46,331 bases of DNA from a virus (taxonomy: Duplodnaviria > Heunggongvirae > Uroviricota > Caudoviricetes): IMG/VR virus record IMGVR_UViG_2877948078_000002, one strand, 5' to 3'. This document shows, in pieces, positions 34,968 through 46,331 of the stretch. Positions within the stretch are counted from its first letter, which is position 1; each line of letters begins with the position of its first letter. Made by a program: the position numbers and the translations under genes. The notes under the pieces are model-generated. The model saw nothing but the letters and a program-made list of their open reading frames with translations, was not told the DNA's origin and ran no database searches.

Positions 34968-38369
<3,402 letters not shown>

Positions 38370-38387
38370 ATTTTATAACCCAGAACG

Positions 38388-38412
38388 GGCGTCAGAAATG
38401 ACGCCTTTTTTA
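38388..38412 (+). terminator. Intrinsic terminator after J
   Basis: Hairpin GGCGTCA-GAAA-TGACGCC followed by TTTTTTATT. Confidence 0.6.
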
Positions 38413-38435: not shown

Positions 38436-39035
38436 ATGCGTAAACTTTATGCCGCCATTTTGTCCGCAGCCATTTGTCTGGCCGTATCCGGTGCGCCTGC
38501 ATGGGCGTCTGAACATCAGTCCACGCTGAGCGCGGGGTATCTTCATGCCCGGACGAACGTTCCCGGCAGTGATGATCTGAACGGGATTAACGTGAAATAC
38601 CGTTATGAGTTTACGGACACACTGGGGATGGTGACGTCGTTCAGCTATGCAGGAGACAAGAATCGCCAGATTACCCGTTACAGCGATACCCGCTGGCATG
38701 AAGATTCCGTTCGTAACCGCTGGTTCAGCGTAATGGCGGGGCCGTCTGTGCGCGTGAATGAATGGTTCAGCGCGTATGCGATGGCGGGTGTGGCTTACAG
38801 CCGTGTGTCGACTTTCTCCGGGGATTATCTCCGCGTAACTGACAACAAGGGGAAAAAGCACGATGTGCTGACCGGAAGTGATGACGGTCGCCACAGCAAC
38901 ACGTCTCTGGCGTGGGGAGCTGGCGTGCAGTTTAACCCGACCGAATCCGTGGCCATTGATGTCGCTTATGAAGGCTCCGGCAGTGGTGACTGGCGCACTG
39001 ACGGGTTCATCGTGGGTGTTGGTTATAAATTCTGA
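38436..39035 (+). CDS. lom: Lom-like outer-membrane beta-barrel protein (Ail/Lom/PagC family)
   Basis: 199-aa product with signal peptide ([24 protein letters not shown]) and C-terminal aromatic residue (…GVGYKF); position after J as in lambda. Confidence 0.85.
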
Positions 39036-39061: not shown

Positions 39062-39088
39062 AGCCCGCCGGTTCAGGCGGGCTTTTTT
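39062..39088 (+). terminator. Intrinsic terminator after lom
   Basis: Hairpin AGCCCGCC-GGTTCAG-GCGGGCT followed by TTTTTTG. Confidence 0.65.
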
Positions 39089-39099
39089 GTGGGGTGAAT

Positions 39100-42000
39100 A
39101 TGGCAGTAAAAATTTCAGGTGTACTGAAAGACGGCACAGGAAAACCGGTACAGAACTGCACAATCCAGCTGAAAGCAAAACGTAACAGCACCACGGTGGT
39201 GGTGAACACGCTGGCCTCAGAAAATCCGGATGAAGCCGGGCGTTACAGCATGGACGTTGAGTACGGTCAGTACAGCGTTATTCTGTTGGTGGAAGGATTC
39301 CCGCCGTCACATGCCGGGACCATCACCGTGTATGAAGATTCCCGACCCGGTACGCTGAATGATTTTCTCGGTGCCATGACGGAGGATGATGCCCGTCCGG
39401 AGGCACTGCGCCGTTTTGAGCTGATGGTGGAAGAGGTGGCGCGTAACGCGTCCGCGGTGGCACAGAACACGGCAGCCGCGAAGAAGTCAGCCAGTGATGC
39501 CGGCACATCTGCCAGTGAGGCGGCAACCCATGCGACTGATGCTGCAGGCTCAGCGCGTGCAGCCAGCACGTCAGCCGGACAGGCCGCGACGTCGGCTCAG
39601 GAGGCGTCTTCCAGCGCAGGAACAGCATCAACAAAGGCCACAGAAGCATCAAAAAGTGCTGCCGCTGCAGAGTCCTCAAAAAGCGCGGCGGCCACCAGTG
39701 CCGGTGCCGCGAAAACGTCAGAAACGAATGCTGCAGCGTCACAAAAATCAGCAGCCACTTCTGCATCCACTGCGACGACGAAAGCGTCAGAAGCCGCCAC
39801 TTCAGCCAGAGATGCGGCGGCCTCCAAAGAGGCGGCAAAATCATCAGAAACGAACGCCTCCACAAGCGCCAGCAGTGCAGCCTCCTCGGCAACGGCGGCA
39901 GGAAATTCCGTGAAGGCGGCAAAAACGTCCGAGACGAATGCTAAGTCTTCTGAAACGGCAGCGGAACAGAGCGCCTCAGCTGCGGCAGACTCTGAGACAG
40001 CAGCTGCATCATCGGCCCGTGAGGCGTCCATTAAGGCAGAGGAGGCAGCAGTCAGTGCCACCGCCGCCGGAAAATCGGCAGAAAGCGCCGCATCATCCGC
40101 TTCAACAGCCACAACGAAGGCTGGCGAAGCCACTGAACAGGCCAGCGCAGCAGCGAGGTCTGCTTCCGCAGCGAAGACATCCGAAACGAACGCGAAAGCG
40201 TCGGAAACCAGCGCAGAATCCTCAAAAACGGCTGCCGCATCGTCCGCCAGTTCGGCGGCGTCATCGGCATCATCTGCGTCTGCTTCAAAAGATGAGGCGA
40301 CCAGACAGGCGTCAGCAGCGAAGGGCAGCGCCACGACAGCATCCACGAAGGCGACAGAGGCAGCTGGCAGTGCGACGGCGGCAGCACAGAGCAAAAGTAC
40401 GGCGGAATCCGCGGCAACGCGCGCCGAGACAGCAGCTAAACGGGCAGAGGATATTGCATCCGCCGTGGCGCTTGAGGATGCAAGTACGACGAAAAAGGGG
40501 ATAGTACAGCTCAGCAGTGCGACCAACAGTACGTCTGAAACGCTGGCGGCAACGCCAAAGGCAGTAAAATCAGCCTATGACAATGCAGAGAAACGTCTGC
40601 AGAAAGACCAGAACGGCGCTGATATACCCGATAAGGGACGCTTCCTGAACAACATTAACGCGGTCAGTAAAACAGACTTTGCTGATAAGCGTGGTATGCG
40701 TTATGTGCGGGTTAACGCTCCTGCAGGTGCAACATCTGGAAAATATTACCCTGTTGTTGTTATGCGTTCTGCTGGCTCAGTAAGCGAACTGGCATCAAGG
40801 GTCATTATCACCACGGCACCGCGAACCGCAGGCGATCCGATGAATAACTGCGAGTTTAACGGATTTGTTATGCCTGGTGGCTGGACTGACAGGGGGCGTT
40901 ATGCTTATGGAATGTTCTGGCAATATCAAAACAATGAACGAGCCATCCACTCAATAATGATGAGTAATAAGGGCGATGATTTGCGCTCTGTGTTCTATGT
41001 TGATGGCGCTGCTTTCCCTGTTTTTGCGTTTATCGAAGATGGCCTGTCAATATCCGCACCTGGTGCTGATCTCGTTGTTAATGATACGACCTATAAGTTT
41101 GGGGCAACAAATCCAGCGACTGAATGTATCGCGGCGGACGTTATCCTTGATTTTAAGAGTGGGCGTGGTTTTTATGAGTCTCATTCGTTAATCGTTAACG
41201 ATAACTTGTCGTGCAAAAAACTTTTTGCCACAGACGAAATTGTAGCGCGTGGTGGTAATCAGATTCGAATGATAGGTGGGGAGTATGGTGCATTATGGCG
41301 TAATGATGGCGCTAAAACTTACCTGCTGCTTACCAATCAAGGTGATGTTTATGGTGGCTGGAATACATTAAGACCGTTTGCTATTGATAACGCAACCGGC
41401 GAACTGGTTATTGGAACCAAACTGTCCGCAAGTCTGAACGGTAATGCATTAACAGCAACAAAGCTGCAAACGCCAAGACTGGTTTCTGGTGTTGAGTTTG
41501 ATGGTTCCAAAGATATTACTTTAACCGCCGCGCATGTGGCTGCTTTTGCCAGAAGGGCAACGGATACATATGCCGATGCGGATGGTGGCGTTCCCTGGAA
41601 TGCCGAATCAGGCGCTTACAATGTCACCCGCTCTGGCAACAGCTATATTCTGGTTAACTTCTATACCGGAGTCGGAAGTTGCCGGACATTGCAGATGAAG
41701 GCGCATTACAGAAATGGAGGTCTGTTCTACCGTTCCTCAAGAGATGGCTATGGTTTTGAAGAAGACTGGGCAGAAGTTTATACCTCGAAAAATCTTCCAC
41801 CAGAAAGCTACCCAGTCGGTGCACCAATCCCGTGGCCATCAGATACCGTTCCGTCTGGTTATGCCCTGATGCAGGGGCAGACTTTTGACAAATCTGCTTA
41901 CCCGAAACTTGCAGCCGCTTATCCGTCAGGCGTGATCCCTGATATGCGTGGCTGGACGATTAAGGGCAAACCTGCCAGTGGTCGAGCCGTATTATCTCAG

Positions 42001-42450
42001 GAACAGGACGGCATTAAATCGCACACCCACAGCGCCAGCGCATCCAGTACGGATTTGGGGACGAAAACCACATCGTCGTTTGATTACGGCACTAAATCCA
42101 CGAATAACACCGGGGCGCATACCCATAGTGTTAGCGGTACGGCTGCTTCAGCCGGTGCACATACCCATTCGATAACATTTGTTTCAGGTGGCACCAAAGG
42201 TGCTCCGGGAAGTGGATCACCTGATTATTCTAAATACAGTGTTAACACTTCTTCTGCAGGCGCTCATACGCACTCTGTATCGGGTACTGCTGCAAGCGCA
42301 GGTGCACACGCACATACTGTAGGTATTGGTGCGCATACGCACTCGGTTGCGATTGGTTCACATGGACACACCATCACCGTTAACGCTGCTGGTAACGCGG
42401 AAAACACCGTCAAAAACATCGCATTTAACTATATTGTGAGGCTTGCATAA
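39100..42450 (+). CDS. stf: Side tail fibre protein (Stf) with long Ala/Ser/Thr-rich repeat region and C-terminal His-rich repeats
   Basis: About 1116-aa product beginning [27 protein letters not shown]…; low-complexity repeats ([17 protein letters not shown]…) across about 39480..40500; C-terminal GAHTHS repeats; stop overlaps the tfa start. Confidence 0.85.
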
Positions 42451-43025
42451 TGGCATTCAGAATGAGTGAACAACCACGGACCATAAAAATTTATAATCTG
42501 CTGGCCGGAACTAATGAATTTATTGGTGAAGGTGATGCATATATTCCGCCTCATACAGGTCTGCCAGCAAACAGTACCGATATTGCACCGCCAGATATTC
42601 CGGCTGGCTTCGTGGCTGTTTTCAACAGTGATGAGTCATCGTGGCATCTCGTTGAAGATCATCGGGGTAAAACGGTTTATGACGTGGCTTCCGGCGACGC
42701 GTTATTTATTTCTGAACTCGGTCCGTTACCGGAAAATGTTACCTGGTTATCGCCGGAAGGGGAGTTTCAGAAGTGGAACGGCACAGCCTGGGTGAAGGAT
42801 ACGGAAGCAGAAAAACTGTTCCGGATCCGGGAGGCGGAAGAAACAAAAAACAACCTGATGCAGGTAGCCAGTGAGCATATTGCGCCGCTTCAGGATGCTG
42901 CAGATCTGGAAATTGCAACGGAGGAAGAAATCTCGTTGCTGGAAGCATGGAAAAAGTATCGGGTATTGCTGAACCGTGTTGATACGTCAACTGCACAGGA
43001 TATTGAATGGCCAGCACTGCCGTAG
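42450..43025 (+). CDS. tfa: Tail fibre assembly protein (Tfa)
   Basis: 191-aa ORF immediately after stf (TAATG overlap); size and position of lambdoid Tfa. Confidence 0.85.
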
Positions 43026-43122: not shown

Positions 43123-43713
43123 TTATATGTCAGGTGTCTGAAGTTTTGCTTTGGCTCTTAAAATGGTTTGCCGCGAGGTTTTGAATTCCCGGGCAATGGC
43201 ACTTATACTTACACTTGACTTAATTCGTTCGAATACCACCTGTTTCTGTTCTTCATTTAACACAGGTGGTCGACCAAAACGTTTCCCTGCGCCGCGGGCT
43301 CTTACTATCCCGGAATGAGTGCGTTCAAGTAAAAGGTCTCGTTCAAATTCAGCAACTGCTGAAATTACTTGCATCATCATTTTTCCTGTTGGACTGGTCA
43401 AGTCAATGCCCCCCAATGCTAAGCAATGCACTCTGATACCTGTTTCGGTCAGTTGTTCCACTGTTTTCCTGATATCCATTGCATTACAACCAAGGCGATC
43501 CAGTTTTGTCACAATCAATTGATCACCACATTTCAGGCGAGCAAGCAACCGGTTAAAACTAGGACGCTCACTGGTTGCTGCTGAGCCGCTAATGTGTTCT
43601 TCGATTATTTGCTGAGGTTTGATTTTAAAACCTGCACTTTCGATTTCCCGGCGTTGATTTTCGGTGGTCTGATCCAGCGTTGATATCCGACAGTAAGCAA
43701 AAATTCGAGACAT
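43123..43713 (-). CDS. pin: Serine recombinase DNA invertase (Pin/Gin/Hin family)
   Basis: 196-aa product [20 protein letters not shown]… with catalytic Ser in the N-terminal motif and a C-terminal HTH; convergent with tfa. Confidence 0.9.
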
Positions 43714-44029: not shown

Positions 44030-44263
44030 TTACATTTTACCATTTAAATTTTGGTTGTCTTTAAGAACTGATATCGCTGTTTGTAATAATTCTTTGTTAT
44101 CCAGCCATGATTTTTTCTTTATGTTTCCTTCAATGTAATCAAGCAATGTTCTGGTATTGATAGGTCTTCCCTGTTTTGCTACTTCCACTACAGCATCCCC
44201 TAGGATAATTCTTACTTCAGGAAGCTGCGCAGGGAACCACTTTAGGGTGTCTTTTGATTTCAT
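44030..44263 (-). CDS. ydfK: YdfK-like small protein (77 aa)
   Basis: Internal ATG with AAGGAA Shine-Dalgarno gives 77 aa MKSKDTLKWFPAQLPEVRIILGDAVVEVAKQGRPINTRTLLDYIEG…, matching YdfK/YnaE as recalled. Confidence 0.6.
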   Translation of the reverse strand: MKSKDTLKWFPAQLPEVRIILGDAVVEVAKQGRPINTRTLLDYIEGNIKKKSWLDNKELLQTAISVLKDNQNLNGKM

Positions 44264-45047
44264 GAAGATATTCCTTAAAATATTATTGATTTTCATTGCG
44301 ATATTGTATGTCTGATTCAGGATATGTTGACTTATACATCGGTTTTGTCTGGGTTATTGGATATGCCAATCCCTAATTTTATTAGGGCATGACTAAAAAT
44401 GCTGAATATGATAAGGAGAGAAGTGATTATCAGTATGCTGTTCATATAGCCTCGAATTAGTAATGTGTTATATATGATATAGTTGACAATTTTTATCTTG
44501 GGTGTTCTTAAAGTTCGTAGATAAACATTGTCGTTTCAGGTATACAGGAATGCTAACAGGTGGCAGCAAAAATCAGGCGGTTATGGCGCAAGCTGAAGCG
44601 GCAACTGCAAACTATCTTATGCAGAGACTCTACACGGATTGGGTTTAAAAGTATACATAGATAACAGTTTTTATCTGAAAAAGAAAAATATCAAGGTGAT
44701 ATAGCCTATATGCCTTTGATGCGGAGGAATGAATGTGATGGGAGTGATGTATCTGAATAGTTGAAAAACCGCAGACACGCCTTATGCAAGAACGTGCTGC
44801 GGTTGGCTGGTAAATTTTTCGATAGTGTGAGTATTGAATGATTTCCAGCCGTTCTTGATTTTACGCATAAATCCATGAAAAAACTACTTATCTGTTGGGG
44901 AGTTTTTTTGGGGCATATATGGGACAGAAATAGGCCCCAGATAGACACTGAGATCGAACTTAGGATGCTTTTTAAAAAATGCAACTATCTGAAAAAACCT
45001 AGAAAACGCCAAGGAAACCACAGGATGGGAAAAAACACCTGTGAATT

Positions 45048-46331
45048 ATGGATTTCCAGTTATATTCGCTCGGCGCAGCGTTGGTGTTTCATGAAATATT
45101 TTTTCCTGAATCATCAACGGCAATGGCGTTAATTCTGGCAATGGGAACCTACGGTGCAGGTTATGTCGCGCGTATTGTCGGAGCATTTATTTTCGGCAAA
45201 ATGGGCGACAGAATAGGGCGTAAAAAAGTGCTCTTTATTACCATCACCATGATGGGGATCTGTACCACCTTAATTGGTGTGTTACCGACCTATGCACAGA
45301 TTGGTGTTTTTGCCCCCATCTTGCTGGTGACGCTGCGTATTATTCAGGGGTTGGGTGCAGGTGCGGAAATTTCCGGTGCCGGTACGATGCTGGCGGAATA
45401 TGCACCAAAAGGTAAGCGCGGAATTATCTCCTCATTTGTAGCTATGGGAACTAACTGCGGAACCTTGAGCGCAACGGCAATCTGGGCCTTTATGTTCTTC
45501 ATTCTCAGTAAAGAGGAACTGCTGGCGTGGGGATGGCGTATACCGTTCCTGGCGAGCGTTGTCGTGATGGTCTTTGCTATCTGGTTACGTATGAATCTGA
45601 AAGAAAGCCCGGTCTTTGAGAAGGTTAATGACAGCAACCAACCCACAGCAAAACCTGCACCTGCTGGTAGCATGTTCCAGAGCAAATCCTTCTGGCTGGC
45701 AACAGGGCTGCGTTTTGGTCAGGCGGGTAACTCCGGGTTAATTCAGACTTTCCTTGCAGGCTATTTAGTGCAGACGTTATTGTTTAACAAAGCAATTCCA
45801 ACAGATGCATTGATGATTAGTTCGATTCTCGGCTTTATGACCATTCCGTTCCTTGGTTGGTTATCCGATAAAATTGGTCGCCGGATCCCGTATATTATTA
45901 TGAATACCTCCGCGATTGTGCTGGCATGGCCAATGCTTTCTATCATTGTAGATAAAAGCTATGCCCCGAGCACCATTATGGTTGCACTGATTGTGATTCA
46001 TAACTGTGCGGTGCTGGGATTATTTGCTCTGGAAAACATTACCATGGCAGAAATGTTCGGCTGTAAAAACCGCTTTACCCGGATGGCTATTTCTAAAGAA
46101 ATTGGTGGTCTTATCGCTTCCGGTTTTGGTCCTATCCTGGCGGGTATTTTCTGCACCATGACGGAATCCTGGTATCCGATCGCCATTATGATCATGGCAT
46201 ATTCAGTAATTGGTTTAATCTCTGCGCTGAAAATGCCAGAGGTGAAAGACCGTGATTTAAGTGCGCTGGAAGACGCTGCGGAAGATCAACCGCGTGTTGT
46301 AAGAGCTGCGCAACCTTCCAGAAGTCTGTAA
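45048..46331 (+). CDS. ydfJ: MFS transporter YdfJ (metabolite:proton symporter family), probably N-terminally truncated by the prophage insertion
   Basis: 427-aa ORF with multiple transmembrane segments and MFS signature GKMGDRIGRKK; begins inside the conserved first transmembrane region with a stop codon directly upstream of the ATG. Confidence 0.8.
   Translation: MDFQLYSLGAALVFHEIFFPESSTAMALILAMGTYGAGYVARIVGAFIFGKMGDRIGRKKVLFITITMMGICTTLIGVLPTYAQIGVFAPILLVTLRIIQGLGAGAEISGAGTMLAEYAPKGKRGIISSFVAMGTNCGTLSATAIWAFMFFILSKEELLAWGWRIPFLASVVVMVFAIWLRMNLKESPVFEKVNDSNQPTAKPAPAGSMFQSKSFWLATGLRFGQAGNSGLIQTFLAGYLVQTLLFNKAIPTDALMISSILGFMTIPFLGWLSDKIGRRIPYIIMNTSAIVLAWPMLSIIVDKSYAPSTIMVALIVIHNCAVLGLFALENITMAEMFGCKNRFTRMAISKEIGGLIASGFGPILAGIFCTMTESWYPIAIMIMAYSVIGLISALKMPEVKDRDLSALEDAAEDQPRVVRAAQPSRSL

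Follow-up and report, generated by a model that had tools for sequence, protein, structure and literature searches.

The DNA analysed here is a 46,331-nt stretch of a tailed phage (Caudoviricetes; IMG/VR record IMGVR_UViG_2877948078_000002), referred to below as the window. Its positions 39094 to 42450 very probably encode the side tail fibre protein Stf (StfR/StfQ type) of a lambda-like prophage; the gene for the assembly chaperone Tfa comes next. The conspicuous Ala/Ser/Thr-rich part of this protein follows a single heptad register and is best read as a long coiled-coil shaft, and its C-terminal part is a direct homologue of the receptor-binding needle of phage T4 gp37. A preliminary description, made from the DNA letters alone, had already called the product a side tail fibre. 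The call is borne out by the N-terminal domain PF08400 (prophage tail fibre N-terminal domain; residues 3–136, E = 1.6e−71, 239 bits versus a cutoff of 26.6 in Pfam), by the match to the lambda Stf collar, by 94.8% identity over the full length to StfR of Escherichia coli K-12 (BLAST) and by the adjoining tfa gene. None of the evidence gathered contradicts this assignment.

Gene and domain architecture

The stf open reading frame (ORF) runs on the + strand from GTG 39094 to 42450 and comprises 1118 codons, or 1116 aa when counted from ATG 39100; all residue numbers below are counted from GTG 39094. The true start is probably ATG 39100, because both lambda Stf (PDB 9E7M) and the annotated stfR of K-12 begin there: in the cryo-electron microscopy (cryo-EM) entry 9E7M, lambda Stf opens with MAVKISG at the position of this ATG. 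A G-rich, Shine-Dalgarno-like run lies immediately 5′ of it. The preliminary description had given the fibre as 39480–42450. Its end is correct, but position 39480 is internal to the gene, near the onset of the compositionally biased stretch. The features of the gene, together with the adjacent tfa, are as follows.

39094..42450, + strand: side tail fibre gene stf (ORF; Pfam, PDB and BLAST matches)
39100..39381, + strand: collar domain StfN, residues 3–96 (94-residue match to 9E7M/9MGH, E = 2.1e−51)
39400..40470, + strand: predicted Ala-cored coiled-coil shaft, residues 103–459 (heptad register, AlphaFold 2 (AF2) helix, collinearity with lambda)
40009..40323, + strand: 15-heptad segment without counterpart in lambda Stf, residues 306–410 (pairwise alignment)
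40420..40662, + strand: conserved post-coil junction similar to Mu fibre S, residues 443–523 (PDB 8JU3/5YVQ)
41086..41385, + strand: T4 gp34-type trimerisation domain, residues 665–764 (PF21446, E = 3.4e−27)
41536..41820, + strand: second Mu S-like segment, residues 815–909 (PDB 8JU3 domain 3, 76 bits)
41803..42447, + strand: T4 gp37-type collar and needle, residues 904–1118 (2XGF, E = 2.7e−88; PF07484, PF03335)
42022..42369, + strand: span of seven His-x-His (HxH) motifs, putative iron ligands (motif scan, 2XGF alignment)
42172..42249, + strand: hypervariable tip loop, residues ~1027–1052, likely receptor contact (column conservation)
39597..40526, − strand: longest spurious antisense ORF, 309 aa (ORF list; limited to the GC-rich, stop-poor coil)
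42450..43025, + strand: tfa, tail fibre assembly chaperone, 191 aa (PF02413, E = 3.6e−43)

The start of tfa overlaps the stop codon of stf. Alignment shows that the post-coil junction is also kept in lambda Stf, and a sequence search of the PDB matched the T4 gp34 structures 4UXE and 5NXF to residues 708–779. Within the C-terminal part, the tail collar domain PF07484 was found at residues 909–956, and the phage fibre repeat PF03335 was matched as well.

The Ala/Ser/Thr-rich stretch follows a heptad register

The preliminary description reported about 340 residues of low-complexity A/S/T/K/E sequence, and this estimate was close: the biased part comprises some 345–357 residues, and the string quoted as an example lies at residues 197–213. 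Across residues 117–462, Ala makes up 37%, Ser 22%, Thr 12%, Glu 8% and Lys 7% of the sequence, so that Ala, Ser and Thr together account for 71%. The distribution of Ala is strongly periodic, with a Fourier power of 45.8 at a period of 3.5 residues and 19.8 at 7.0, whereas 200 shuffles never exceeded 8.6. Between about residues 103 and 459 the protein keeps a single register of 51 heptads with zero stutters, and the phase itself was found to be constant over residues ~105–445. Ala occupies position 6 in 47 of 50 heptads and position 3 in 34 of 50, and Ser occurs at position 2 in 36 of 50 (consensus [T/S]-S-A-[S/T]-x-A-x). The apparent low complexity thus arises because the heptad is built on Ala and Ser. 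In the AF2 model of the monomer (residues 95–520), helices span residues 100–271 and 286–476, with a predicted local distance difference test score (pLDDT) of 70–84. A proximal coiled-coil shaft after the collar domain, as predicted here, is what characterizes lambdoid Stf proteins. With a coiled-coil rise of 0.148 nm per residue, we infer a shaft of about 53 nm; the lambda shaft would be about 37 nm long.

Residues other than Ala at the first core position are, almost without exception, Glu or Lys (12 of 50 heptads), often within the recurring heptad T-S-E-T-N-A-[AK], for example at 39715–39735, 39925–39945 and 40177–40197. Such charged core residues, which are unusual in a trimeric coil, might give rise to buried layers of ions or salt bridges, or act as flexible points.

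The coil can be compared with that of lambda Stf, for which a 2025 study of Ur-lambda distinguished a collar (residues 1–91), a linker, a proximal coiled coil starting at residue 102, a hinge and a gp37-homologous distal part (PMC12617516).

Coil length differs between homologues mostly in whole heptads

Coil lengths were compared using the full-length protein as the query, an N-terminal-only query being useless for this purpose. The sample comprised 122 close homologues (cluster representatives together with K-12 StfR and the query itself), in which the coil span was measured between fixed anchor motifs. The span is 361 residues in 90 of the 122; the remaining ones lie between 277 and 466. 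The larger differences are mostly multiples of seven (+105, −84, ±28, ±7). Differences that do not fit the heptad are a 3-residue deletion at residue 389, found in ten clusters, as well as +40, −60 and −12; these may add stammers or stutters, or may reflect errors in singleton sequences. When lambda Stf (sequence L002, 774 aa) is aligned with the fibre, the coils are collinear and ~90% identical, with a single clean gap of 105 residues, that is, exactly 15 heptads, opposite residues 306–410; this segment is present in K-12 StfR. Length differences in steps of seven (105, 84, 28) are consistent with a maintained register.

The suggestion that repeat number may vary between strains is therefore borne out, with a qualification: lambda has 15 heptads fewer and the homologues cover a range of spans, but an identical span is shared by 90 of the 122. 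The number of heptads varies, yet the modal form strongly predominates. In the family as a whole, length variation resides mainly in the middle and distal modules, the post-coil part being 628–773 residues long. Of the two effects that the preliminary description had ascribed to repeat number, that on fibre length remains plausible, since the coil plausibly sets it, whereas receptor specificity is assigned to the hypervariable tip loop described below.

One could go further and regard coil length as a selected 'ruler', with heptad-quantised modules tuning how far the tip reaches beyond the tail tip. We consider this proposal improbable. The modules that it would invoke are the 15-heptad block (~15.5 nm) distinguishing the coil from that of lambda and the variants of +15, −12 and ±4 heptads in close homologues. 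If it were true, the reach of the fibre would fit the thickness of the host O-antigen or capsule, and coil length and tip allele would co-vary with the type of host surface.

The C-terminal part is a gp37-type needle with a hypervariable loop

Six or more GAHTHS-type motifs had been noted at the C-terminus. We count seven HxH motifs, at residues 977, 1009, 1023, 1058, 1072, 1081 and 1090, four of which are exactly GAHTHS. The earlier remark that they are reminiscent of the T4 long tail fibre tip understates the relationship: over its last 215 residues, the fibre is directly homologous to the T4 gp37 needle solved in 2XGF (E = 2.7e−88; needle identity 69.7% by BLAST), and all seven motifs align. 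In the HMMER alignment with 2XGF, the His pairs 977/979, 1009/1011, 1023/1025, 1058/1060, 1072/1074, 1081/1083 and 1090/1092 stand in register with 883/885, 915/917, 929/931, 966/968, 980/982, 989/991 and 998/1000 of gp37, respectively. The assignment to the gp37-type needles is further consistent with the preceding collar domain PF07484, a C-terminal strand identical to that of T4 and the adjacent chaperone gene. In the T4 needle, such histidines, H929 being named, are reported to hold seven iron atoms, and the tip subdomain 932–959 to bind lipopolysaccharide (LPS) and OmpC (PMC6957217).

In an alignment of 120 homologue clusters and T4, conservation reaches 99% or more in all 14 His columns and exceeds 90% in their flanks, whereas it falls to 0–30% in the loop between the third and fourth HxH motifs (residues ~1027–1052). 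This loop corresponds to T4 tip subdomain 932–959, and receptor specificity likely lies here rather than in the coil. The allele present in this fibre is unlike those of K-12 StfR, lambda and T4; it recurs unchanged in other database entries.

Proposed architecture of the fibre

Taken together, these results suggest a modular homotrimer in five parts, the trimeric state following from homology within the family. Homology to the lambda cryo-EM structure suggests that the fibre is attached to the tail through its N-terminal collar StfN. Next, 51 heptads with Ala at both core positions would form a long, rigid α-helical shaft, succeeded by the conserved junction and a middle module resembling Mu S and T4 gp34. 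In the needle, three chains with seven HxH motifs each would create an axial row of seven octahedral His6 iron sites, a proposal based on the ~70% identity to 2XGF. Finally, the hypervariable loop at the extreme tip would meet a receptor in the host's outer membrane; the receptors of T4 and lambda are OmpC and/or LPS. Tfa, as in related systems, is expected to fold and trimerise the distal part, and the side fibre presumably makes reversible adsorption faster, just as in lambda, where the side fibres act on OmpC (PMC12617516).

Several points qualify this picture. The AF2 monomer of the coil folds back antiparallel, with a low-confidence break at residues ~272–285, and the AF2 monomer of the C-terminal 220 residues, a model of a single chain only, reaches a pLDDT of 55 and a predicted template modelling score (pTM) of 0.20. 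The trimeric state, the iron binding and the receptor are all carried over from homologous proteins, and assembly of a fibre presumes that the prophage is inducible. The fold-back is probably an artefact of the monomer model, as is usual when one chain of a homo-oligomeric coiled coil is modelled, but the break could mark a hinge. Full-length AlphaFold models of lambda Stf also fold back, unrealistically in the view of the Ur-lambda authors (PMC12617516). As for the tip, a low score is to be expected of an intertwined trimer and speaks neither for nor against the fold, and we relied on the sequence match to 2XGF instead.

Alternative explanations

The biased stretch could be imagined as a disordered, mucin-like flexible linker. 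Its extreme composition (A+S+T = 71%) would fit such a linker, published work has singled out StfR as an outlier in its low-complexity regions, and the low-complexity filter of BLAST appears to mask the stretch, which we take as the cause of the 70% coverage of otherwise full-length hits. This explanation is nevertheless highly improbable. A linker would hardly keep an unbroken register across 51 heptads, with Ala at one core position in 47 of 50, be predicted as helix by AF2, or differ from lambda by 105 residues and among homologues by 84 and 28, all multiples of seven. Moreover, the collinear region of lambda Stf was handled as a rigid coiled coil in the cryo-electron tomography and modelling of Ur-lambda (PMC12617516). 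Another explanation would make the stretch a hypermutable, slippage-prone tandem repeat at the DNA level, or an assembly artefact of one. The homologue spans do differ (277–466 residues), and many stf entries in databases are fragments at contig ends; with the N-terminal domain (39094–39501) as the query, almost only partial proteins of 113–237 aa at contig ends were retrieved. However, Tandem Repeats Finder (TRF) detected no array in the coil, only a trivial 19-nt hit with a score of 31, and the longest direct DNA repeats there reach just 28 nt at 75–82% identity, spaced in multiples of 21 nt. High-identity head-to-tail repeats, the hallmark of a DNA tandem-repeat or contingency locus, are thus lacking. 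Nor is there a higher-order repeat in the protein above heptad composition: over shifts of 1–29 heptads z did not exceed 2.3, and the best four-heptad block (20/28) equals the 95th percentile of a null shuffled within heptad columns. A recent internal duplication was rejected on the same result. In addition, 90 of the 122 homologue clusters share an identical span, and 1231 complete E. coli genomes match at least 80% of the gene. Contig breaks are better accounted for by stf paralogues, of which complete E. coli genomes carry a median of 3 places and up to 16; it seems, then, that assemblies from short reads regularly break within stf owing to paralogous prophage copies and not to the heptad region. 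Slippage is scarcely credible under these circumstances, and an assembly artefact as the source of the stretch is very unlikely. Because the coil contains no real DNA repeat, the idea of a variable-number tandem repeat (VNTR) and that of an artefact were dropped. What had been called a repeat array holds as a heptad repeat in the protein, but not as a tandem repeat in the DNA.

The third alternative concerns the gene rather than the coil. Stf could be an intact-looking relic in a cryptic prophage which forms no functional fibre and serves only as a recombination reservoir for incoming lambdoid phages. The stfR gene of K-12, itself part of a defective prophage, undergoes recombination with lambda, and the same stf-tfa-pin-ydfK end is found here. 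Yet the window, unlike Rac, retains an intact J, lom and long upstream tail and head ORFs, stf and tfa are free of frameshifts, and near-identical fibres occur in the viable, isolated phages 2H10, mEp332 and ev099. We regard a relic as rather unlikely; in any case, it would bear on expression and not on the identity of the protein.

Overlapping reading frames in the coil

The coil is overlapped by ORFs of 309, 199 and 121 aa on the − strand; the other + frames contribute two more, of 139 and 188 aa. The preliminary description had dismissed the long antisense ORFs as spurious, and rightly so. GC content is 61.6% in the coil versus 48.6% in the remaining gene, and three of the five non-coding frames contain 1, 2 and 4 stop codons in the 1071 nt of the coil, as compared with 19–55 per frame in the other 1977 nt. 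The heptad imposes a bias towards GCN, TCN and ACN codons, because of which stops are lost from the other frames and spurious ORFs appear. When the four largest of these ORFs (139–309 aa) were searched against Pfam, none matched at a family threshold, and there was only one sub-threshold chance hit.

Genomic neighbourhood

The gene lies 3′ of J and lom and directly 5′ of tfa, an arrangement common to K-12 Rac and lambda. The other neighbouring genes are as follows.

34971–38369: J, host-specificity protein (ORF list and Pfam)
38436–39035: lom (ORF list and Pfam)
43123–43713, − strand: Pin-type serine invertase (Resolvase and HTH_7; Pfam)
44030–44296, − strand: ydfK/ynaE-like small cold-shock-type gene
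45048–46331, + strand: major facilitator superfamily (MFS) transporter, 427 aa, the stop codon of which coincides exactly with the end of the window

The order J-lom-stf-tfa-pin is that of lambdoid prophages of the Rac/Qin type; in K-12 Rac, the corresponding genes are stfR-tfaR-pinR-ydfK. The end formed by the invertase, the ydfK/ynaE-like gene and the MFS transporter is presumably akin to the junction of the Qin prophage at ydfJ in K-12.

Strong terminator-like hairpins of 8 pairs each, followed by T runs, flank lom on both sides (38387–38406 with 5 GC pairs and 39062–39083 with 7, both on the + strand), and the second of them stops only ~10 nt 5′ of the stf start. A lom gene between two hairpins is the typical 'moron' layout, and late transcription must pass the second hairpin to reach stf.

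The serine invertase adjoins the fibre genes at the position that pinR occupies in K-12 Rac. An invertase-switched fibre, of the Mu Gin, P1 Cin or e14 Pin type, was considered and rejected: the ORF list holds no second fibre/tfa cassette between tfa and pin, a search for gix/hix-like crossover cores near stf found none, and no convincing inverted repeats were detected (the longest arms, of 22 nt, are 73% complementary, and the best-matched, of 14–18 nt, 83–93%). The invertase looks orphaned, like pinR in K-12 Rac.

Distribution and significance

Of 5426 complete E. coli genomes, 5171 contain a match to stf, the best full-length DNA identity among them being 97.5%; a further search gave matches in 934 phage records. 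Besides 2H10, isolated phages with near-identical full-length fibres are mEp332, ev099, Kati and PhiR34_1. In NCBI/nr, the label 'short-chain fatty acid transporter' is attached to many full-length Stf homologues, and 'phage portal protein' to a few. An annotation error seems to have spread here, because the proteins in question carry PF08400, PF21446 and PF07484 and are 90–97% identical to this fibre.

Neither the gene nor its two highlighted features are new, the coiled-coil shaft and the gp37-type HxH iron needle having been published for lambda and T4. StfR is catalogued among the genes of K-12 and appears in the literature as a recombination partner of lambda; homology between Stf and gp37 has been recognized since 1989; and the coiled coil and collar of Stf were described in 2025 (PMC12617516). 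The unbroken register of 51 heptads and the exact 15-heptad difference from lambda are small details that are not explicit in the literature found. A gene so close to K-12 StfR and to the fibres known from isolated lambdoid phages is of little consequence as a discovery. For annotation, the results mean that the biased stretch should not be handled as disorder, a VNTR or an assembly error, and that the ORFs overlapping the coil should not be called genes. The tip loop (~1027–1052) would be the part relevant to host-range prediction or to chimeric Stf delivery particles.

Comparison with known fibres

Similarity to the fibres of Mu and to T4 gp34 is confined to modules in a mosaic: Mu S (5YVQ, 8JU3) shows local homology at residues 443–523 and 815–909, and T4 gp34 at 665–779. 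No counterpart of the invertible S/S′ cassette of Mu was found here. The relationship to T4 gp37 (2XGF) is much closer in the distal part, since the alignment extends across the whole of the last 215 residues, with ~70% identity and an identical C-terminus; however, T4 tip subdomain 932–959 is replaced by an unrelated 26-residue loop, the sequence N-terminal of the collar domain PF07484 is lambdoid, Mu-like or gp34-like rather than gp37, and the chaperone is of the lambda Tfa type, whereas T4 uses gp38. Lambda Stf has the same collar, A/S/T heptad coil, post-coil junction and gp37-type needle. It differs in the 15 heptads (105 residues) missing from its coil, in a shorter and unrelated middle module and in the needle, which carries eight HxH motifs instead of seven and a longer tip insert.

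The closest relatives are K-12 StfR of Rac and the tail fibre of phage 2H10 (96.8% identity), both collinear with this fibre. The Tfa encoded here shares 99.5% identity with TfaR and 95.3% with lambda Tfa. Differences from K-12 concern the tip loop between the third and fourth HxH motifs, which reads LANVNTASANSGAGSASTRLSVVHNQNYA in StfR and is a different allele here, and the prophage around stf, which looks complete here, unlike Rac. Fibres of the StfR/StfQ/2H10 type share with this one the coil span of 361 residues, the middle module, the seven HxH motifs and the neighbouring tfa and pin genes.

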